The translations under genes and the position numbers were made by a program. 46,984 nt of DNA, taken from UHGV virus genome UHGV-0142121. The stretch is one strand, 5' to 3'. Source of the stretch: a virus. The notes below the pieces were generated by a model. That model worked only from the letters and a program-made list of their open reading frames with translations. It had not been told where the DNA came from and did not search any database. Of this stretch, positions 8,391 to 21,388 are shown in pieces (the stretch's first letter is position 1; the number at the start of each line of letters is the position of its first letter).

Positions 8391-8435
8391 TTGACAAGCG
8401 TACTAGACAAAACTTGTATAGCTTGGTTAGTATCA
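8391..8435 (+). promoter_or_regulatory. Putative rightward early promoter(s) for cro (TTGACA at 8391; -10-like TAGTAT at 8428)
   Basis: Consensus -35 hexamer; -10 candidates overlap the operator half-site; no Shine-Dalgarno before cro, suggesting a short or absent leader. Confidence 0.4.
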
Positions 8436-8439
8436 TTTC

Positions 8440-8628
8440 ATGAAAACGAAAGAAGCCATAGCCGCCTGCGGCGGCATAAACAAACTCTGCGAACTGCTCG
8501 GCTGTACTCGCGTTGCGATCTACAAATGGGGAGAGGAAGTCCCCGTGCTTCGACAGTACGAGCTGGAGATTAAAACAAATGGCCGACTCAAATCTGACTA
8601 CACACTGCATAAAGAAAAGGATGCCTAA
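8440..8628 (+). CDS. cro: Cro-like repressor, 62 aa
   Basis: Small HTH protein (ELLGCTRVAIYKWG) divergent from cB. Confidence 0.75.
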   Translation: MKTKEAIAACGGINKLCELLGCTRVAIYKWGEEVPVLRQYELEIKTNGRLKSDYTLHKEKDA

Positions 8629-8631
8629 CCC

Positions 8632-9273
8632 ATGGGACAGAATAAACGTCCATCGCGAGACACAATGTCATCAGTGGTTATACGGGCAACCTTACGGATG
8701 CTCGATGAAACCGGCGGCAGTGTCGCACAATTCTCTACAACGCGCTTGATTCCTGCTCTGGAAGTTCAGGGGCTTGTTGATATGGGGTCTGAAGGCATCA
8801 ATGTCACAGATTACATGCGCTGGCGTAGCCGTTGCATTAAGCGAGCACAGCGCGTCCTGGCTGGCGATACACCGATGCCTGCAGATTGGGTGTTAACGTG
8901 GTTGTCATGTCTTCCGGAAGAGTACCGTAACAAGTGCTCTCAGAAGCTGGCAGCGATGCAGGGCCTGCAATGGGTCCGCATGCCTAAGTACAACCGTATT
9001 CGTGTTGATTCAGTCGACGCTGAAATTGACGAGATTACTGTGAAATTCGGTGCCGTTCTCGCCAACTCAGCGCCAGCCCAGGATGGCGTATACGATGGCA
9101 GTGATGACCAGCACGCCCTGAAGCAGCTGCAGAACCGCCTGTATGAGTTGTCGTCATACCTCTATCGGGAAATCCTGAATATAGAAATGGCCACCGGCAT
9201 TAAACCGGACCACGTTGAACTTGGTGCGCTGAGTCCGCTGGGCCATCAAGCAGGGGGCAAATATGCAGTTTAA
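8632..9273 (+). CDS. Hypothetical early protein, 213 aa (possible regulator)
   Basis: First gene after cro in the same operon; no confident motif. Confidence 0.45.
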   Translation: MGQNKRPSRDTMSSVVIRATLRMLDETGGSVAQFSTTRLIPALEVQGLVDMGSEGINVTDYMRWRSRCIKRAQRVLAGDTPMPADWVLTWLSCLPEEYRNKCSQKLAAMQGLQWVRMPKYNRIRVDSVDAEIDEITVKFGAVLANSAPAQDGVYDGSDDQHALKQLQNRLYELSSYLYREILNIEMATGIKPDHVELGALSPLGHQAGGKYAV

Positions 9274-9928
9274 TTTTGTTCGCAACGAGCTTACTGCAGC
9301 GCTCTTGTCGTTCTCAAAATCTCACCGCAATCAGATCGTCGCGATGGCAGAACGTGCGCCACTGCAGAGCCGATTTACTGCAAAGCCGCAGCGTGAAATT
9401 GATATCGATAACGACACTGTCATTGTCATTGATGCCGAGCCAATCAGCTACAGAGAAGGCAAGCGTTACCATACGAGCATGATCCCGGTATCGCCAGCCA
9501 TTTTTAGCCAGGTGTCATGGCGTAGCGCGTTATTGAAAATGCCTGAGCCGTATAAATCCTGGTTGAATTACTGCTACGGCGATTCAATTTCATTTGAATA
9601 TCAAACAATACTGACAACACATATCTGGCATTCCCTGCTGATTAACCTGGCTGAAAGCAAATCGCCAAAAATGAACGGCAAGACTGAAAGCAACTTAAAA
9701 GCACTTGCCTGGTTGGCTCTACAGGAATCAAAAAATTTCATTAACCGCGGCGAGCTTAAATACAGCCAGGAAGAATTGAGCCAGCTATGTGGTGTGAAAT
9801 ATGACCTATGGCGGAAGAATTATAAAAATCGCTGGGATGTCATGTTGGCCTGCAGTGTTCAAATGGATCGGGAGGCGTTAATACATGTCGACCAATTACG
9901 GAAGAAGCATATCAGCAACAGGCGGTGA
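9263..9928 (+). CDS. Hypothetical early protein, 221 aa (antiterminator Q-like role possible by position only)
   Basis: AGGGGG ribosome-binding site; no confident motif. Confidence 0.45.
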   Translation: MQFNFVRNELTAALLSFSKSHRNQIVAMAERAPLQSRFTAKPQREIDIDNDTVIVIDAEPISYREGKRYHTSMIPVSPAIFSQVSWRSALLKMPEPYKSWLNYCYGDSISFEYQTILTTHIWHSLLINLAESKSPKMNGKTESNLKALAWLALQESKNFINRGELKYSQEELSQLCGVKYDLWRKNYKNRWDVMLACSVQMDREALIHVDQLRKKHISNRR

Positions 9929-10187
9929 AATTCCTTCCTGCCTTTGCAAACAAGTAATGCATCACCACGCAGTAAAACCGAAATTAGTTAGATCTGAGCT
10001 ACGCAATGAATATTTGATGTTTTGTCCATCTTGCGGATTCAGAACACATCCTGACTGGTGTCGAAATGCCGTTATTGCGGAGTGGTGTGGCGCAAATAAA
10101 CCAGGTGACCAGCATATTCAGGAGCTTTGGTTAAAGCGCTATACAGAGCAACAAAATGAAAGTCTTGCAAAAAAGATGAATATTTAA
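9885..10187 (+). CDS. Zinc-ribbon protein, 100 aa, weak Lar-like signature
   Basis: CPSCG zinc knuckle followed by AVIAEW, reminiscent of the Lar restriction-alleviation family; GGAGG ribosome-binding site. Confidence 0.35.
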   Translation: MSTNYGRSISATGGEIPSCLCKQVMHHHAVKPKLVRSELRNEYLMFCPSCGFRTHPDWCRNAVIAEWCGANKPGDQHIQELWLKRYTEQQNESLAKKMNI

Positions 10188-10191
10188 CTCA

Positions 10192-10209
10192 TTGGGACCA
10201 TGGTCCCAA
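10192..10209. repeat. sopC-like palindrome TTGGGACCATGGTCCCAA (perfect)
   Basis: Perfect 18-bp palindrome in the 12-nt gap between two early genes. Confidence 0.75.
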
Positions 10210-10226
10210 AATCGGATGAGGTAATT

Positions 10227-10445
10227 ATGGCAGATAACCTTTTCGGGAAGAATCGCACTTATCACGATTCTGGTGATTTCACTCATCGCTATTTCTACTT
10301 ATTGCGCGGTTGCGTTCCCCCGCCAGCGAAACGGCAGGCAGAACCCAGCGTGCAGCCAGTAGCAAAGGCAAATACAAAGAGCCAACGTCAGCAAGCCATG
10401 GATAAGGCCAGGGCCAATGCTAATCGTCGTTATAAAGGAAAATAA
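10227..10445 (+). CDS. Hypothetical protein, 72 aa (start moved to ATG 10227; the track start lies inside the palindrome)
   Basis: GAGG ribosome-binding site 7 nt before ATG 10227. Confidence 0.4.
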   Translation: MADNLFGKNRTYHDSGDFTHRYFYLLRGCVPPPAKRQAEPSVQPVAKANTKSQRQQAMDKARANANRRYKGK

Positions 10446-10446
10446 G

Positions 10447-11385
10447 ATGAAAAACTTCCGTTGCGTATTCCCTTACATCAGCAAAACAGCAGTACCCGAA
10501 AACATCAACGAACTACTCATCGAACGTGCGTTTGATGGCCTGTCTGATTGTGAACGTGAGGGTAAAGGCTGGGCCAGAATTGGCGATGAACGCATGCTTA
10601 CTGTTGATGGTAAGTATCTTTTCCGTTATTTCGCCAGCAAGCGCCGTCCTGACCAGCTGGCGGTTCAGCGTTTGCTTAACGAACGTACCGATGAAGTAGT
10701 CGAAGACGGTCGGGAGGTTACTCCGGAACTGATGGAAGAGATGCGCTTCCAGGCTGAGAACGATGTGATGAAGTACTCCCCAATCAGCAGCACAGCGATC
10801 TATATCCTTATGTGGCCAGCGCGCCGCCTTCTGTTGGTTTCTGGCGGAACGGCGTCAAAGTGCGAGGATGCATTGTCATTTTTGCGTAACACGCTGGGTA
10901 ACCTGCATGCGATGCCATGGGGGAATTCACATTTTACCTCCACAGCAGTCACTAAGAATATGACTGAGGGAAATAGCATCTATAAGCTGCCACCTATGCT
11001 GGCTATTTCGCCTTATGGGAAAACGTTATTCACTGGTGAAGACACATCTTTAAAAATCACGCTTGATGGCGTATCGAATGATACTGACGATGCACGGAAT
11101 ATTCTTTCAGGAATGACGGCCCGTTCAGTTGAGATGTCCCTTTATAAACGCCCTGATAATGGGCAAATTGAAAACTTAGCGAATTTCAACCTTGTCATGC
11201 CGCCGAATGGCAACGTCCATTTAAAATCGTTCGATTACGACGATGATATGGAACGTGATGACTTATCGCAGGCATTGATTGCTGAAATGCACCTCGTGAC
11301 TAACTACACACATCAAATTCTATCCGGGCTGGAAGATTTTATCGGCGTGGATCTGGAAGATAATAGCCTCACGCCGCAGGAATAA
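10447..11385 (+). CDS. rdgC: RdgC-like recombination-associated protein, 313 aa
   Basis: Matches my recollection of E. coli RdgC at several blocks (GTASKCEDALSFLRNTLGNL vs [20 protein letters not shown]); start moved to ATG 10447 after AAAGGA. Confidence 0.65.
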   Translation: MKNFRCVFPYISKTAVPENINELLIERAFDGLSDCEREGKGWARIGDERMLTVDGKYLFRYFASKRRPDQLAVQRLLNERTDEVVEDGREVTPELMEEMRFQAENDVMKYSPISSTAIYILMWPARRLLLVSGGTASKCEDALSFLRNTLGNLHAMPWGNSHFTSTAVTKNMTEGNSIYKLPPMLAISPYGKTLFTGEDTSLKITLDGVSNDTDDARNILSGMTARSVEMSLYKRPDNGQIENLANFNLVMPPNGNVHLKSFDYDDDMERDDLSQALIAEMHLVTNYTHQILSGLEDFIGVDLEDNSLTPQE

Positions 11386-11387
11386 AT

Positions 11388-11588
11388 ATGGCATTGGATC
11401 TGTTTATGCAGGGGCCAATGACAGAACAGGAAGCTACGGAGCTGGCAAATAAGTACAAAGCATCAGGACGCCGGGTATCAATAACGGCGTCGTTTCAGCC
11501 AGGTCTTAAATATGTTCAGGTTTATCTGCCAGTCAGCAGATTTCGCCCCAGACAATCAGCGACATATCAACAAAGAATATGGAAATAA
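11388..11588 (+). CDS. Hypothetical protein, 66 aa
   Basis: AGGAA ribosome-binding site; tightly packed in operon. Confidence 0.4.
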   Translation: MALDLFMQGPMTEQEATELANKYKASGRRVSITASFQPGLKYVQVYLPVSRFRPRQSATYQQRIWK

Positions 11589-12514
11589 TGATGGATAATG
11601 CACATAAGACTATTTTACAGCTGTTAATGGCTACATGGCTTAAAAGTGATTTTCGTATTATTGATACGGAAACAACCGGGCTGGAAGATAATGATGAGAT
11701 TATCGAAATCTCGATCATCAATATGCGTGGTGATGTGCTGCTTGATACGCTTGTTAAGCCGACCCGCCCTATCCCCGCAGCTGCGACCGCTATCAACAAC
11801 ATCACCAACGAAATGGTTGCTGATGCCCCATCCTGGCAGGAAGTTTATCCGGCGGTAGTCGCCGCGATTGGTGGCCATAAGTGGCTTGCCTGGAACTCAA
11901 AATTTGATGCCCGGTTGATTACTCAGACCTGCATGATTACTGGCCTTTATAACGATTTGGCACCGGCGGCCATGCTGGAAATGTACAGCAGCATCCATTC
12001 CGGCCATATCGACGCGAAAGAGACTTACAGCCAGTGGTACGGCGCGCTTTCTATGAAGGATAGAAACTTTGTTCGGCAGTCTCTGTCGATGGCAGTAGTT
12101 CAGCAGGGCGTAACGGTCAGTGCTGAAGCTCACCGTTCACTCGCCGACTGCCAGCGCGTTCTCCGCGTACTAGAAAGCGTCTGCAATGATCCACACCTAC
12201 CAGCTGATGGCGCCGACCTTCGCCAAGGTGATGAGTCCGGGCTGGCGCCCTGCCCGTTCTGCTATGGTCCTCCATCGATGTTTGTTCATCACCTGCATGG
12301 CCTCCAGTACAAGCCGTTGTGGAACCCTGCCAACTATGGCGAGGACGGCCTGTATGCCGGCGCCGTTGTTTTCTGTCATGAGTGCGGCGCACATGGCGAA
12401 GAGGCCACCGATGTTGTGTTTGATGATAGCGACGTCGAGCAACTGGAGAACGCCGCCAAAAAGAACTGGAACACGCGCGATAAGCGCCATCAGGACCTTT
12501 ATGAATCCAAATAA
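11579..12514 (+). CDS. DEDDh (DnaQ-like) 3'-5' exonuclease fused to a C-terminal Lar-type zinc ribbon, 311 aa
   Basis: Exo motifs IIDTETTG, LAWNSKFDARL, HRSLADCQ; C-terminus CPFCYG...CHECGAHG...AAKKNWNTR matches the Lar family pattern. Confidence 0.7.
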   Translation: MEIMMDNAHKTILQLLMATWLKSDFRIIDTETTGLEDNDEIIEISIINMRGDVLLDTLVKPTRPIPAAATAINNITNEMVADAPSWQEVYPAVVAAIGGHKWLAWNSKFDARLITQTCMITGLYNDLAPAAMLEMYSSIHSGHIDAKETYSQWYGALSMKDRNFVRQSLSMAVVQQGVTVSAEAHRSLADCQRVLRVLESVCNDPHLPADGADLRQGDESGLAPCPFCYGPPSMFVHHLHGLQYKPLWNPANYGEDGLYAGAVVFCHECGAHGEEATDVVFDDSDVEQLENAAKKNWNTRDKRHQDLYESK

Positions 12515-12527
12515 GCGGGATTAAGTC

Positions 12528-12758
12528 ATGAAGCTGAAAATGAATGCGCCGGATGGTTCCGTGATTGTCGAAAGCAACCTGGTATCTCAGTTCTATCCTG
12601 ATTTCGACAGCGGTGGCGAGCTAACAACAATCGAAACTGTTTCGCCTGATGGGAAAACTTTCTCAGTGAAAGTTAAGCACTCGTTTCATCAGGTCACTAA
12701 CGCGCTGGCGACCGCATGGCGCGTAGATGAGAAGAAAGCCGAAGGAGCAGCCCAATGA
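12528..12758 (+). CDS. Hypothetical protein, 76 aa
   Basis: ORF in operon with ATGA overlap to the next gene. Confidence 0.4.
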   Translation: MKLKMNAPDGSVIVESNLVSQFYPDFDSGGELTTIETVSPDGKTFSVKVKHSFHQVTNALATAWRVDEKKAEGAAQ

Positions 12759-13336
12759 ACGATATCACTGCACTGGCGCAGCGTATGAAGGCGGCAGCAG
12801 AGAAGGCGACACCGGGGAACTATGTTGTAGGCCATAACGACATTAACCGGCATGGGTTGTTGAGCAGTGTATTTGTATGCCAGGAGTACAAGGGGATTGC
12901 TGGCGGTGTTGTAGCTGAATGCCATATGAATTGTCTTACTAAAAATGACGAGCAGGTGTACGCAAATGCAGAATTTTTTGCAGTTACTCACCCAGCCAAC
13001 GTCCTGGCGCTGGTAGAGGCGCTGGAGATGGCGCAGCGTCAAATACAAGCTCATGAGCGTGCTGAATTCACCTGGATGAATGCCCTAGCGCTTCCGGATA
13101 ATGCGTCGCGTATCGACATCCTACCGGCTATTCATGCGGAAAAATATGCACTGCGAGAGGCAACCAAGCGGATTGCTTCGCTGGAGTCCCGCACTGTCAC
13201 CGTGAAGCTGCCTGAGCGTTACTCCTGCGAACTGGGCTACCCTGGCCCCGACCCGGATGGCGAGCTGCTCGACCGTAACGATGTAATCGAAATACTCCGC
13301 GCTGCTGGCATCCAGGTTATCGAAGGAGACGCATGA
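12755..13336 (+). CDS. Ead/Ea22-like protein, 193 aa
   Basis: N-terminus ITALAQRMKAAAEKATPGNY resembles the lambdoid ead/Ea22 family start. Confidence 0.4.
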   Translation: MNDITALAQRMKAAAEKATPGNYVVGHNDINRHGLLSSVFVCQEYKGIAGGVVAECHMNCLTKNDEQVYANAEFFAVTHPANVLALVEALEMAQRQIQAHERAEFTWMNALALPDNASRIDILPAIHAEKYALREATKRIASLESRTVTVKLPERYSCELGYPGPDPDGELLDRNDVIEILRAAGIQVIEGDA

Positions 13337-14619: not shown

Positions 14620-14852
14620 TAGACCGGAATGTCGTATTGATAAACACATTGACGCGCCGAACAATGGCGAGCGTCACTGCCGGCGGTGATGGTTTCATTT
14701 CTACCGGCACGTTGTCGTTTGATGTTGGCCTGAATACCAGGACTATTCGTCGCATGCTCGATAGCGCAGTAGAGTCGGGCGAAGCTGAGCGCCGTTCTAA
14801 CGGGCCAGGCAAGCCATACAGCTATCGCATTCGGGAGGCGGCATGCTCTTAG
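14616..14852 (+). CDS. Hypothetical protein, 78 aa
   Basis: ATGA coupling; GGGGGG ribosome-binding site. Confidence 0.4.
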   Translation: MIDRNVVLINTLTRRTMASVTAGGDGFISTGTLSFDVGLNTRTIRRMLDSAVESGEAERRSNGPGKPYSYRIREAACS

Positions 14853-15469
14853 ATCATCGCAGCCACACCGCCGCTGAGCATCGAGATACCTGGAGAACTG
14901 ACCCGCGCATAGCCGCGGGCCTTTTTGAGCTATTGCGCCCTTGCCATATTGATGCGTGCGCCAGCGCTGAAAACCATCTTCTGCCGGAGTTCTTTACCCG
15001 CGAAGATAATTGCCTGCAGCTGGACTGGCTGGCTGAAACAAAACGTCGCGGCGTACTGCCAGCGCTTTATGCCAACCCGCCATTCTCGAAAGAGGACAGC
15101 CGAGCGGCTACTCCGCACAATGGCATGGGAAACTTCTTCCGTAAGGCGCGCGTAGAGGCTGAGCAGGGTGTTTATTCTCAATGGCTTTTCCGTGCACGCC
15201 CTGGGGAGAACTGGTTCCCCTGGCAACTAGCCAGCCGCATCTGGTTTATCGTTGGGCGTGTGGGCTTTGTTGATTCTGCCACAGGGAAAATCGACAACGA
15301 GCAGACAGAGAATCATTGTGTAGCCGAATTTATCCCTGGAGAGCATCCGATTCTTGCGGCTGGGCTACCAATAAACCGTGATGACATCCTGGCCGCAGGC
15401 ATGGCTGCAATCAGTTCTGGAAAATATGGATTGATAACAATCCGATACAAACAACTATCGATGAGATAA
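14843..15469 (+). CDS. Phage Dam-like DNA N6-adenine methyltransferase, 208 aa
   Basis: NPPF catalytic motif (YANPPFS) and overall pattern of the phage N6A methyltransferase family; GGAGG ribosome-binding site. Confidence 0.65.
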   Translation: MLLDHRSHTAAEHRDTWRTDPRIAAGLFELLRPCHIDACASAENHLLPEFFTREDNCLQLDWLAETKRRGVLPALYANPPFSKEDSRAATPHNGMGNFFRKARVEAEQGVYSQWLFRARPGENWFPWQLASRIWFIVGRVGFVDSATGKIDNEQTENHCVAEFIPGEHPILAAGLPINRDDILAAGMAAISSGKYGLITIRYKQLSMR

Positions 15470-16194: not shown

Positions 16195-16283
16195 TTGCAA
16201 AAACTTCACAAAAAAATTAAACTTTTTCTAAGTTGGGTTTTCTGTAACCAGCTTATTCTAACCGCCTTCATGGCGGTTTTTTT
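16195..16283 (+). promoter_or_regulatory. Putative late promoter (TTGCAA ... TAAACT) plus short leader ending in an intrinsic terminator (16261-16283)
   Basis: Promoter-like hexamers followed about 40 nt later by hairpin ACCGCC-TTCAT-GGCGGT and seven T, upstream of the methyltransferase-lysis operon; architecture resembles Q-dependent late promoters. Confidence 0.35.
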
Positions 16284-16419: not shown

Positions 16420-17481
16420 ATGGAAAACACTGTAAATATAAACAGTGCCGTTCTTGTGCGTGCTGATACTCTGGCATACATAAAAACTCTCCCGGACAAC
16501 AGTATCGATGCCATCATCACCGACCCGCCCTACTACAAAGTAAAGGCGGCATCGTGGGATAACCAATGGCCGACGGCTGTTGATTATCTGGCATGGCTCG
16601 ATGAGTGCTTGGCGGAATTCTGGCGGGTGCTGAAGCCGGCTGGCTCTCTGTACGTATTCTGCGGTCCTAAGCTGTCATCTGACACAGAACTGCTGATAGG
16701 CGAGCGGTTCAACGTGCTAAACCATATCATCTGGGCCAAACCGAGCGGTCGTTGGAACGGCTGCCGGAAAGAGGATTTGAGATCGTATTTCCCGGCGACT
16801 GAGCACATTGTGTTTGCTGAACATTATGGCTCTGAGGGATTCGCAAAAGGTAATGCCGGGTATGCGACGAAGTGCCGGGAACTGAAAAGCCAGGTCTTTG
16901 CGCCGTTGATTGAATACTTCCGAACTACCCGGCAGCGCTTGGGCATTTCGGCTGCAGAGATCAACGCGGCGACGGGAACCCAAATGTGCAGCCACTGGTT
17001 TAGTTCAAGCCAATGGCAACTGCCCAGCGAAAAACAATACCAGGCTCTTCAGGCGTTGTTTAACCGGGTAGCGAAAGAGAAGCAAACCTCTGGCTTACTG
17101 TCCGACCACGCCGCGCTGGAAGCGGAATACAACGAGTTATCGGAACAGTATTCAGAACTGGTAAAGCAGTACAGCGATTTGCGTGAGCAGTACGAAAACC
17201 TGCGGCGCCCATTCAGGGTAACAAAGGATGTACCGCATACGAACGTCTGGACGTACCCACCAGTTCAGCATTATCCCGGTAAACATCCATGTGAAAAGCC
17301 GATAGAGATGATGATCGATATTATCTCGGCCAGTACTCGACCTGGCGACCTGGTAGCCGACTTCTTCATGGGTTCGGGTGCAACGGTTAAAGCAGCTATG
17401 CAGCTGGGCCGGCGTGCTATCGGCGTTGAGCTGGAAGAGGAGCGCTTCTTACAGACTGTCTCAGAAATTACAGAACTATAA
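16420..17481 (+). CDS. DNA methyltransferase, 353 aa, first gene of the late operon
   Basis: DPPY catalytic motif (IITDPPYY) near the N-terminus and AdoMet-binding FFMGSGAT near the C-terminus. Confidence 0.75.
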   Translation: MENTVNINSAVLVRADTLAYIKTLPDNSIDAIITDPPYYKVKAASWDNQWPTAVDYLAWLDECLAEFWRVLKPAGSLYVFCGPKLSSDTELLIGERFNVLNHIIWAKPSGRWNGCRKEDLRSYFPATEHIVFAEHYGSEGFAKGNAGYATKCRELKSQVFAPLIEYFRTTRQRLGISAAEINAATGTQMCSHWFSSSQWQLPSEKQYQALQALFNRVAKEKQTSGLLSDHAALEAEYNELSEQYSELVKQYSDLREQYENLRRPFRVTKDVPHTNVWTYPPVQHYPGKHPCEKPIEMMIDIISASTRPGDLVADFFMGSGATVKAAMQLGRRAIGVELEEERFLQTVSEITEL

Positions 17482-19990: not shown

Positions 19991-20842
19991 ATGGCTGAGA
20001 AAATTATTGCCGATGTACTCGATACTGCTCTGGCTCGACATTACGAGCAACTTGGCGATGCAGAACGTGAAAAACAGGCGGTGGTCTTTATGGATGGTCG
20101 CTGGGTGGCCATCCGCGGGGATTTTACCCCTGATGAAATTCGTGAAGCTGTGGAATACATCCATCGCTACCGTGTATCGAAAAAGCTCCAGAAATCGCTG
20201 GAAGATATCTCACCATTTGTTGTTGATAACGGTGAGGTATTCATCAAGGACGCATTTATTTCGGAAACTATCCACGCGGCAGAAACGCTGAAGCCGAAGA
20301 ACAGTAATAGCAACATAGATGTAGGTAAGATTCTTGACGATGCATGGAAAAGTGGTCGCCCATGTATCGGGGAGGCTGTGAACAATCTGGCTCAGGTTAT
20401 AGCAAGTGCCCGAGTATCCTCTCAAATCTTTAAGCAACATACGAGCTGCGGTGAGATAACGCCATTAACCTATACAGCATCTATGAGCATTAACGTAAAC
20501 GATGCCCCGTCCGCATCTGGTGCCGATAGTAACATTGATGGCATTTCATTTGAGGTGAGCGATAAGGACATGGTTGTCAATCTGGCTGGCGGTGGGCGAA
20601 TCGTCATCAGTAATTGGGGTGATAGCAGCACCATGGTATCGAAAGCATTACCACCACTTGCACATACAGCATCATTGGGTCTTTCCTGCCACGATATTGC
20701 GAAAGAAACATTATCAGCAGTGCTCGCCGCTACTCTCCCCAACGTACCAAGGGGTCGAACCGAAGAAGCGGCTATTGCCCTGGCTCGTGCGGTACGATCT
20801 GCTTTCAACGCGCTGGGAAACGATAATGCCAGCCCGCGCTAA
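19991..20842 (+). CDS. Hypothetical protein, 283 aa
   Basis: Strong AGGAG ribosome-binding site; no recognisable motif. Confidence 0.5.
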   Translation: MAEKIIADVLDTALARHYEQLGDAEREKQAVVFMDGRWVAIRGDFTPDEIREAVEYIHRYRVSKKLQKSLEDISPFVVDNGEVFIKDAFISETIHAAETLKPKNSNSNIDVGKILDDAWKSGRPCIGEAVNNLAQVIASARVSSQIFKQHTSCGEITPLTYTASMSINVNDAPSASGADSNIDGISFEVSDKDMVVNLAGGGRIVISNWGDSSTMVSKALPPLAHTASLGLSCHDIAKETLSAVLAATLPNVPRGRTEEAAIALARAVRSAFNALGNDNASPR

Positions 20843-21188
20843 GCGCCCTTGTAAGCACAAAGGATGCTCTACCGCCACTAACGACCCATCAGGATATTGC
20901 GATAGCCATCGCCAGCAGCACGCCGGTGATGGCTGGCGTAATTACCAGCCAGGGAAGAGCCGACAGGATCGCGGGTATGGAAGACCATGGGAGATACGCC
21001 GCGCTCGCATTCTGATGCGGGATAAATATCTCTGCCAGGACTGCCGGCGCCGGGGCATAGGCATGAAAGCTGAAAGTGTGGATCACATCATCCCGAAAGC
21101 CCATGGCGGCACCGATGACGATAGCAACCTCGAATCGTTGTGCTGGCCATGCCACCGCCGGAAGACAGCTAAGGAACGATTTAACTGA
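20826..21188 (+). CDS. HNH endonuclease, 120 aa
   Basis: Cys-rich zinc pattern plus DHIIPKAHGGTDD..NL..LCWPCH; start moved to ATG 20826; packaging-associated HNH by position. Confidence 0.7.
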   Translation: MPARAKRPCKHKGCSTATNDPSGYCDSHRQQHAGDGWRNYQPGKSRQDRGYGRPWEIRRARILMRDKYLCQDCRRRGIGMKAESVDHIIPKAHGGTDDDSNLESLCWPCHRRKTAKERFN

Positions 21189-21388
21189 TGGCATACATCC
21201 GTTGTACTTACTGCGGCTCGCAGCTGCATACCGTAGCGAACTGCCCTAAAACGTGGGGCGGTTCATCCCGCCGTGCCAACTTGCGCTGCGGCTATTGTGG
21301 ACAGTCAGGACATAACTCTAATGCCTGCCCACACAATGCGAGCAGCGGTCGCCGTCGTCAGTTGAACGAAAACTTTTATCTGGACTAA
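21188..21388 (+). CDS. Small zinc-finger protein, 66 aa
   Basis: Cys pairs CTYCG, CPK, CGYCG and a terminal Cys-Pro-His; ATGA coupling. Confidence 0.4.
   Translation: MAYIRCTYCGSQLHTVANCPKTWGGSSRRANLRCGYCGQSGHNSNACPHNASSGRRRQLNENFYLD

Follow-up and report, generated by a model that had tools for sequence, protein, structure and literature searches.

An exonuclease joined to a Lar-type zinc ribbon, of the N15 gp41 family, in the early operon of the telomere phage-plasmid UHGV-0142121

The virus genome UHGV-0142121, of which we analysed the whole stretch of 46,984 nucleotides (nt; hereafter the window), is an N15-like telomere phage-plasmid. We focus here on one gene of its early rightward operon, whose product of 311 amino acids (aa) joins a predicted 3'-5' exonuclease domain to a C-terminal zinc ribbon of the Lar restriction-alleviation family, and on the small genes that precede it. 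By its sequence, this open reading frame (ORF) is an orthologue of gp41 of phage N15, and a new and divergent member of that family. The cassette and the parts of the protein, all on the + strand, are laid out as follows; pLDDT, the predicted local distance difference test, is the confidence score of the AlphaFold2 (AF2) models, and pI is the isoelectric point.

9263-9928, + strand: Q-type antiterminator (PF06323, 3.9e-42), the upstream boundary of the cassette
9885-10187, + strand: basic Cys4 protein, 100 aa, in the family of N15 'Orf QD1' and PY54 ORF44 (net charge +4, pI 8.8)
10200-10445, + strand: p81, 81 aa (phrog_25996), which co-occurs with RdgC in loci L009, L033 and L061
10417-11385, + strand: RdgC-like protein, 322 aa (PF04381, 35.3 bits for a cut-off of 25; phrog_724, 2e-43)
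11388-11588, + strand: p66, 66 aa (phrog_1212, 1.5e-18; no Pfam match)
11579-12514, + strand: exonuclease-Lar fusion gene, orthologue of N15 gene 41 (dnq), an ORF that matches Pfam RNase_T and Lar_restr_allev
11636-12178, + strand: predicted DEDDh exonuclease domain, residues ~20-200
12179-12238, + strand: interdomain linker, residues 201-220, acidic (net charge -4, pLDDT 60-68)
12239-12511, + strand: predicted long-type Lar-family Cys4 zinc ribbon, residues 221-311

The length of 311 aa holds if the gene is read from the ATG at 11579. This start is probably wrong, because the stop codon of p66 forms a TAATG overlap further on, and because N15 gp41 aligns from M4/M5 of the protein, where there are in-frame ATGs at 11588 and 11591. 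The ATG at 11588, which lies within the TAATG stop/start overlap, is probably the real start, and a protein begun at one of these later ATGs would be 307-308 aa long. The same overlap leads us to predict that p66 is translationally coupled to the exonuclease.

In the AF2 model of the whole protein (pLDDT 83.7 overall), a confident exonuclease is followed by a low-confidence linker and by a beta-rich ribbon with two terminal helices. The original prediction had described a DnaQ-like exonuclease with a C-terminal Lar pattern, and this description is borne out, with 70.3 bits on PF00929, 45 bits on PF14354 and all of the motifs at their places. Towards the N15 clade, identity is about 0.59 in the exonuclease and about 0.60 in the ribbon and drops to 0.14-0.4 in the linker, whose length ranges between 14 and 20 aa; over the relatives at large, with the closest pair set aside, linker identity is 0.08-0.40, for about 0.6 in each domain. 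Since the two domains are equally conserved on either side of a poorly conserved and length-variable linker, the protein is best described as two putatively functional domains on a flexible tether.

The RNase_T model (PF00929) covers residues 27-198 with an E-value of 3.6e-19, for a cut-off of 24 bits, and the three motifs of the family can be read along it, with ExoI as DTETTG at 29, ExoII as NSKFD at 106 and ExoIII as HRSLAD at 185. The catalytic residues D29, E31, D110, H185 and D190 are conserved at 90% or more among 76 homologues, so that an intact DEDDh (DnaQ/ExoX-like) 3'-5' exonuclease domain is predicted. Its AF2 model has a pLDDT above 90 throughout, and Foldseek finds as its best neighbour the epsilon subunit of DNA polymerase III (Pol III), with a template modelling (TM) score of 0.78, a root-mean-square deviation of 2.9 Å and an E-value of 7e-9. 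Further neighbours of the fold are ExoX, the exonuclease domains of PolC and DinG, and a DnaQ domain associated with Cas2. By sequence, the matches in the PDB are 2p1j and 4fzx, and the E-values to the PolC exonuclease domain and ExoX are about 1e-9 to 1e-10. Epsilon (DnaQ), ExoX and the exonuclease domains of PolC and DinG thus have the DEDDh fold and the catalytic motifs in common with the window protein, but the C-terminal polymerase-binding region of epsilon and the C-terminal domain of ExoX are absent from it, and it carries the Lar ribbon instead. CRN-4 of Caenorhabditis elegans, a eukaryotic apoptotic nuclease whose zinc domain is reported to bind DNA, offers an analogy for the build (PDB 3cg7). 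It likewise has a DEDDh head followed by a C-terminal zinc domain, and the nuclease domains superpose (Foldseek ranks 22, 43 and 46), but the zinc domain of CRN-4 is unrelated to the acidic ribbon of the window.

The likeness to epsilon brings in a first alternative, according to which the protein would be a proofreading subunit that joins the host Pol III at a RepA-driven replisome, with the ribbon in place of the polymerase-binding tail. Besides the structural match, this would suit a phage that encodes its own RepA primase-helicase and no polymerase, and it would agree with the label of phrog_192 and with the RefSeq name of N15 gp41, 'DNA polymerase exonuclease subunit'. That label, however, is a family name only, and none of the NCBIfam equivalog models for epsilon or ExoX comes near its cut-off. 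Membership of the epsilon family was tried and rejected, as the protein scores 51.5 bits against 222.7 on dnaQ_proteo (TIGR01406), where it matches profile positions 4-100 only, 49.5 against 196 on PRK05711, and 45.9 against 71.5 on the dnaq subfamily domain. ExoX and the PolC exonuclease domain are equally similar in sequence, and the homologues of the phiKO2 type end near residue 202 and carry no tail. We therefore regard a replisome role as very unlikely.

The C-terminal module matches Lar_restr_allev (PF14354) over residues 222-300, with an E-value of 1.3e-11 in the full protein for a cut-off of 28.6 bits, and the last 100 aa taken alone reach 48.4 bits on this model, on which Rac Lar/RalR scores 53.5. 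Its two knuckles are CPFCYG at 225 (C225/C228) and CHECGAHG at 266 (C266/C269), followed by WNTR at 297-300 in a helix and by an RDKRHQDLY tail. The expectation that this region would match Lar-family models holds for Pfam, where the module passes with 45-48 bits, and fails for NCBIfam TIGR03655 (anti_R_Lar), where it has 25.1 bits against a cut-off of 39.6 (RalR has 55.3 there and ORF52 of phage PY54 has 19.5). The 79 residues that the Pfam model covers answer to only 55 of its profile positions, which points to about 24 inserted residues between the two knuckles, and we place the ribbon in a divergent, long subfamily of Lar (hereafter long-Lar). The predicted secondary structure is beta-beta-beta-beta-alpha-alpha, and the AF2 model gives the insertion as beta. 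Across 51 members, the signature of the subfamily reads PCPFCxGPP, then VFCHECGAxG, then WNxRDxRHxxLY, and the columns of both knuckles and of WNxR are invariant. The homology to the founder is not in doubt at the profile level, with hhalign aligning RalR to the long-Lar profile at 96.2% probability (E-value 2.1e-9) and in the correct register over both knuckles and WNxR.

This founder, Rac Lar/RalR (E. coli K-12 b1348), on which PF14354 and TIGR03655 are founded, is like the window module a Cys4 ribbon with CPFCG, CxxC and a helix that ends in WNxR. It differs from it in being a standalone protein of 64 aa, whereas the window module is fused, has the insertion and carries the additional RDxRHxxLY tail. 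RalR is moreover controlled by the RalA small RNA, and no Rfam family, a RalA-like antitoxin included, is detected in the window at gathering thresholds. The two also differ in charge. The long-Lar domains have a median net charge of -7 over about 86 residues and a pI of 4.9, and 90% of the 51 members are net negative; the window ribbon is itself at -7 and the fusions range from -5 to -10, while RalR is at +5, with a pI of 9.1. Because the long-Lar domains are acidic, the binding of a specific DNA structure, which was one of the roles first proposed for the ribbon, is less likely than contact with a protein. Two activities have been reported for RalR, the alleviation of EcoKI restriction and a non-specific DNase (PMC4041452). 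A sequence search for a solved structure of any Lar relative found none. For the Lar family as a whole, there is thus one characterised member, with two conflicting activities, and no structure.

The fusion itself is well represented in public databases. N15 gp41 (Dnq; AAC19079.1) is 55.5% identical, with 100% of the query aligned, and at least 44 clusters have both PF00929 and PF14354, these being all 44 of the best clusters in a collection of 5.8 billion proteins. Their names conflict ("exonuclease domain-containing protein", "Lar family restriction alleviation protein", "DNA polymerase exonuclease subunit"). An architecture that had been called unusual is therefore a known one, and the claim was overstated. 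N15 gp41 and its homologues, from phage-plasmids of Enterobacter, E. coli and Pseudocitrobacter, have the same architecture, catalytic residues, cysteines, WNxRDxRHxxLY tail and cassette as the window. The window protein differs from this group at the level of 55-60% identity (its closest relatives, from unannotated assemblies, reach 93%), its linker is 6 residues longer than that of N15 gp41, and p81 and the RdgC-like gene, absent in N15, are inserted between QD1 and p66.

What follows the exonuclease core, which is 55-65% identical to that of the window in its relatives, is much less constant. In phiKO2-type relatives from Klebsiella, with hundreds of members, the exonuclease stands alone with 202 aa, and we did not find a long-Lar anywhere in these phages. 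As the core does without the ribbon in them, the ribbon would be dispensable to it. In relatives from Salmonella, the exonuclease is fused to Ead/Ea22 modules or to coiled-coil-like tails (clusters P0060 and P0076 have Ead_Ea22), and cluster P0005 has the exonuclease, the Lar and an Ead-like tail, with a '...GLISVEDxLR' ending that is common to P0005 and P0060. The C-terminus of the exonuclease is in this respect a hotspot of module exchange (P0057, P0060, P0064, P0068, P0076, P0005). The four cysteines of the ribbon are present in all of the fusion clusters but two. In these two, P0045 and P0046, a deletion of about 28 residues has removed the first knuckle, CPFC included, and left the remainder of the ribbon in place; these may be copies in decay, or the second half of the ribbon may work by itself.

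When the ribbon alone was searched exhaustively, 113 representative clusters were retrieved, most of them standalone proteins of 100-140 aa, and one of them represents an exonuclease fusion. In the 30 longer proteins, no other enzymatic partner of long-Lar is recognisable by Pfam. One of the retrieved proteins, P0140 (953 aa), matches residues 1-30 of the ribbon used as query in 10 separate stretches; it has faint zinc-ribbon-like matches only in Pfam and looks like a repetitive CPxC-knuckle protein.

The genomic setting tells us which genes travel with the exonuclease. The order Q, QD1, p66, exonuclease-Lar is complete in 15 of the 16 viral fusion loci and in an N15-like element of Pseudocitrobacter (L087), and the exception is L020, in which p66 is not called as a separate ORF. 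The window has Q, QD1, p81, RdgC-like, p66, exonuclease-Lar, and p81 with RdgC is found within fusion cassettes in the window and in a single one of these 16 loci. From this synteny, the conserved companions of the exonuclease are QD1 and p66, not RdgC. In N15 itself (L012, 2391-2895), the homologues of QD1 and p66 sit in the 413-bp gap between gp40 and gp41, where they are unannotated in AF064539. The position of p66 directly upstream of the exonuclease is kept in the same 15 viral loci and in L087, and p66 is even fused to the N-terminus of the exonuclease in clusters P0016 and P0053. We regard it as a possible third component of the exonuclease-Lar module.

Phage PY54 shows a second form of this arrangement. 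Its early operon resembles that of the window, with Q, QD1/ORF44, ORF45, RdgC and p66/ORF47 onwards, but its exonuclease, the product of gene 51, is Rv2179c-like (PF16473, 1.9e-68) and has no BLAST similarity to that of the window. ORF52, a standalone long-Lar gene whose product is 46% identical to the window ribbon, shares 77 nt with gene 51. In four further loci (L024-L027), p66 is directly followed by an exonuclease of this Rv2179c type, and the long-Lar lies 1.6-2.4 kb downstream. PY54 and these four loci thus have, like the window, a 3'-5' exonuclease with a long-Lar gene, but the exonuclease is of a different Pfam family and the genes are separate. We note here a non-orthologous displacement, in which the exonuclease at one and the same place of the operon is of the DnaQ type (PF00929) or of the Rv2179c type (PF16473; PY54, L003 3900-4836; L024-L027), and the long-Lar beside it is fused, overlapping or at the downstream distance just given.

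These observations bear on a further alternative, namely that the fusion is adventitious, an exonuclease gene and a small, overlapping Lar-like gene having been joined by a frameshift or a deletion, with domains that act independently. The split and overlapping form of PY54 is what such an origin would look like, and the C-terminus of the exonuclease has repeatedly been joined to whatever modules lie downstream (Ead/Ea22, coiled-coil tails), as p66 has been at the N-terminus in some relatives. The variants that have lost the first knuckle, and the fact that long-Lar is mostly standalone and has no link to an exonuclease outside the telomere phages, also fit with it. However, the fusion is stable over clusters (at least 44) that have diverged to about 55% identity, the domains are equally conserved and the frame is kept through the linker; in addition, as the PY54 exonuclease is non-homologous, the window fusion is not simply that gene pair joined. 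An accidental joining is, in our opinion, an unlikely explanation.

We favour a reading, to which we give an even chance, in which the exonuclease is the catalytic part and the ribbon a tethered accessory module for early phage DNA transactions. The exonuclease would trim 3' DNA ends or 3' tails in early lytic development, in recombination or in replication-associated DNA processing. The ribbon would more likely contact a protein partner than DNA, because the long-Lar domains are consistently acidic and because the exonuclease works without it in the phiKO2-type phages. In telomere phages, the ribbon would work with whichever 3'-5' exonuclease fills the slot, as is suggested by the overlap with a non-homologous exonuclease in PY54 and by the four loci where the two are 1.6-2.4 kb apart. 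Restriction alleviation is one possible role, suggested by the name of the family. What can be said of the telomere phages is that, time and again, their long acidic ribbon goes with a 3'-5' exonuclease, being fused to one of the DnaQ type or placed beside one of the Rv2179c type, and always with the 66-aa gene upstream. If this linkage is functional, N15, a genetically tractable phage of E. coli, would give a direct route to what Lar-type ribbons bind.

Several observations weigh against this reading. The first concerns how often the two go together, a neighbouring exonuclease of the DEDD type being counted when it lies within 3.5 kb of the long-Lar. Among 80 long-Lar loci of IMG/VR, there are 16 N15-type fusions and 5 loci with an upstream, same-strand exonuclease of the Rv2179c type, of which only that of PY54 adjoins the long-Lar; in the other 59, no exonuclease of the DEDD type could be detected. 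Of the 15 long-Lar loci in species-representative genomes, 14 have none either, and the exonuclease is found only at the N15-like Pseudocitrobacter element. A general association of long-Lar with DEDD exonucleases outside the telomere phages was accordingly rejected (none among 56 other viral loci, and none among 14 loci of genomes). Since the link is confined to one phage lineage, the pairing could be inherited synteny, and two loci (L033, L061) have Q, QD1, p81, RdgC and a standalone Lar, without the exonuclease. Then, the mild acidity of the ribbon is compatible with DNA binding through a local basic patch, for which KKNWNTRDKRH would be a candidate; residues 49, 51 and 52 of RalR, which are the equivalents in its WNKR, matter for its DNase activity and toxicity (PMC4041452). 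Finally, DNA ends as the substrate are inferred by analogy, from the fold neighbours only, and a search for functional literature on N15 gp41, on the long-Lar subfamily, on the structure or mechanism of Lar and on phage DEDDh proteins in anti-defence found none.

The alternative closest to the name of the family is that of an anti-restriction device, in which the ribbon would bind the complex of a Type I restriction-modification (R-M) system, as is reported for Rac Lar, and would alleviate restriction or enhance modification, be it on its own or by guiding the exonuclease to that complex or to its DNA substrate. The homology to Rac Lar is real, an acidic ribbon is suited to contact with a DNA-binding protein, and an enzyme head that stays constant while its C-terminal modules change is reminiscent of the adaptors of an arms race. 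There are two DNA methyltransferases in the same operon, and standalone long-Lar genes often adjoin methylases. Phage lambda Ral, a functional analogue of Rac Lar, has no known relation to it in sequence and is not known to be a zinc ribbon, and it is relevant to the window only if this alternative is true. Lar alleviates EcoKI restriction (King & Murray 1995, cited in PMC4041452), and lambda Ral is a small early protein that does so via faster de novo methylation, through HsdM's N-terminal domain (PMC12707154). On the other side, the function is carried over from a single member, which has a charge of +5 where the ribbon has -7, is of another length and lacks the 24-residue insertion, and the ribbon is below the NCBIfam cut-off for Lar. 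The mechanism of the founder is itself unsettled, since a later report describes RalR as a DNase toxin (PMC4041452), and a 3'-5' exonuclease has no obvious role in the alleviation of Type I restriction. The neighbours of the standalone long-Lar genes are mostly structure-specific nucleases (NinG in 7 clusters, RusA in 3, VRR-NUC in 2) and not genes of anti-restriction; RdgC (2 clusters), Q (2) and methylases of the C5 and Dam types (4) are also among them, and the set is typical of a region like the nin region of lambda. On balance, we hold an anti-restriction device to be improbable.

A more elaborate version would make the long acidic ribbon a protein-targeting adaptor, which in telomere phage-plasmids recruits an exonuclease of either family onto a DNA-processing or defence complex of the host (for instance a Type I R-M enzyme or an end-processing nuclease), so that the whole would be an enzymatic device against restriction or against nucleases, with p66 as its third component. 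We consider it a long shot, to be trusted somewhat less than the simpler anti-restriction alternative; if true, the Lar family would gain a first mechanism, and there would be a reason for the interchangeable C-terminal modules of the exonuclease. The idea that the protein is a counter-defence nuclease with another target, which would break down the nucleic acid that serves a host defence system as component or as signal while the ribbon recognises a defence protein, seems to us the least probable of all. It would fit with modular C-terminal adaptors on a constant enzymatic head, with early expression and with an acidic module for protein contact, but it has no specific evidence behind it. The defence-system models of PADLOC give generic DEDDh domain matches only in the window, and no precedent for the N15 gp41-type family was found in the literature.

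The original prediction had also seen a second, weaker Lar-like ribbon 1.5 kb upstream, and this was not confirmed. The 100-aa protein has no match to Pfam or NCBIfam even at an E-value of 10, hmmsearch with the long-Lar model gives it an E-value of 2.5, and hhalign gives 3.5% probability against the long-Lar profile, on the wrong knuckle, and 9.8% against Rac Lar. There remain the Lar label of phrog_6795 and a weak resemblance of fold. Its AF2 model is confident in one of five runs (83, against 42-55 in the others), and the matches of this model in BFVD to small proteins annotated as Lar have a probability of 0.95-0.98, TM scores of 0.56-0.70 and E-values of 0.09-0.3. Against the PDB, it finds insignificant Elf1-type ribbons only, and RalR also matches Elf1 models weakly. 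No further Lar-type ORF was found in the window.

By its sequence, the 100-aa protein is rather a QD1-family Cys4 protein, the product of a genuine conserved gene that is not demonstrably Lar. It is 64% identical to PY54 ORF44, and its top match in BFVD is N15 Orf QD1, which is annotated in the partial record U45242.1 and absent from the full record AF064539. Across 17 clusters of homologues, C19, C21, C47 and C50 are invariant and form CxC and CPxCG knuckles, followed by AEWxGxN. The gene is preceded by a ribosome-binding site, GGGAGG, and its first 44 nt (9885-9928) lie over the 3' end of Q, which it always follows in the fusion loci. As a basic Cys4 protein encoded directly after an antiterminator, QD1 might act in transcription.

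The same holds for the place of RdgC, which had been put together with the Lar-type genes in an island of anti-restriction and recombination control. The protein is indeed RdgC-like, with the Pfam score given above, but the Pfam match covers profile positions 18-178 of 298 and the NCBIfam RdgC models give about 30 bits for cut-offs of 227-501, so that it is a distant relative and not an equivalog. Nor is it a conserved partner, being present in 1 of the 16 fusion loci, and the RdgC-like gene of PY54 tolerates transposon insertion and is dispensable (PMC10612081). The outcome is thus mostly a corrective one: the N15 gp41-type architecture was already in public databases, the Lar label of the second gene is the name of a PHROG, and RdgC lies outside the conserved unit. 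Beyond this, it offers a testable hypothesis on a widespread family of phage proteins.

The placement of the 311-aa gene in an early operon is, for its part, reasonable. A repressor is followed by a rightward operon of cro, a cII-like gene, Q and a string of small genes, with a promoter-like site at 8404-8433, ahead of cro, and no convincing terminator on the + strand before ~14.6-16.3 kb. The DNA of the region is similar to that of the phage collection over 200 bp only, at 74%, to phiKO2. The other features of note in the window are the following.

213-2114, + strand: 633-aa protein at the TelN position, whose only match is phrog_5272 'unknown function' (812 bits)
8440-8628, + strand: cro (PF14549, 5.8e-18), at the start of the early rightward operon
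8632-9273, + strand: cII-like gene (phrog_4834)
12755-13336, + strand: Ead/Ea22-like protein (PF13935, 1.8e-12), here a separate gene for the type of module found fused to the exonuclease in relatives from Salmonella
RepA-type replication protein, 1333 aa (phrog_4913)

By its position and size, the 633-aa protein is a putative TelN. As it matches only phrog_5272, the protelomerase family appears to be unlabelled in PHROGs.

Further along the same rightward block are two DNA methyltransferase genes, at 14843-15469 (phrog_111) and 16420-17481 (phrog_67/6952/6025), both on the + strand, and strong terminator-like hairpins lie among them, at 16260 and 17486. These two methyltransferases are the only parts of the supposed island that are straightforwardly linked to the evasion of restriction, and they are the most direct candidates for it in the region. 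Two more ORFs with paired cysteines are found on the + strand, an HNH-like one at 20559-21185 (CQDC...CWPC) and, after it and just before the large structural genes, an open frame of 67 codons at 21185-21385 (CxxC...CxxC).

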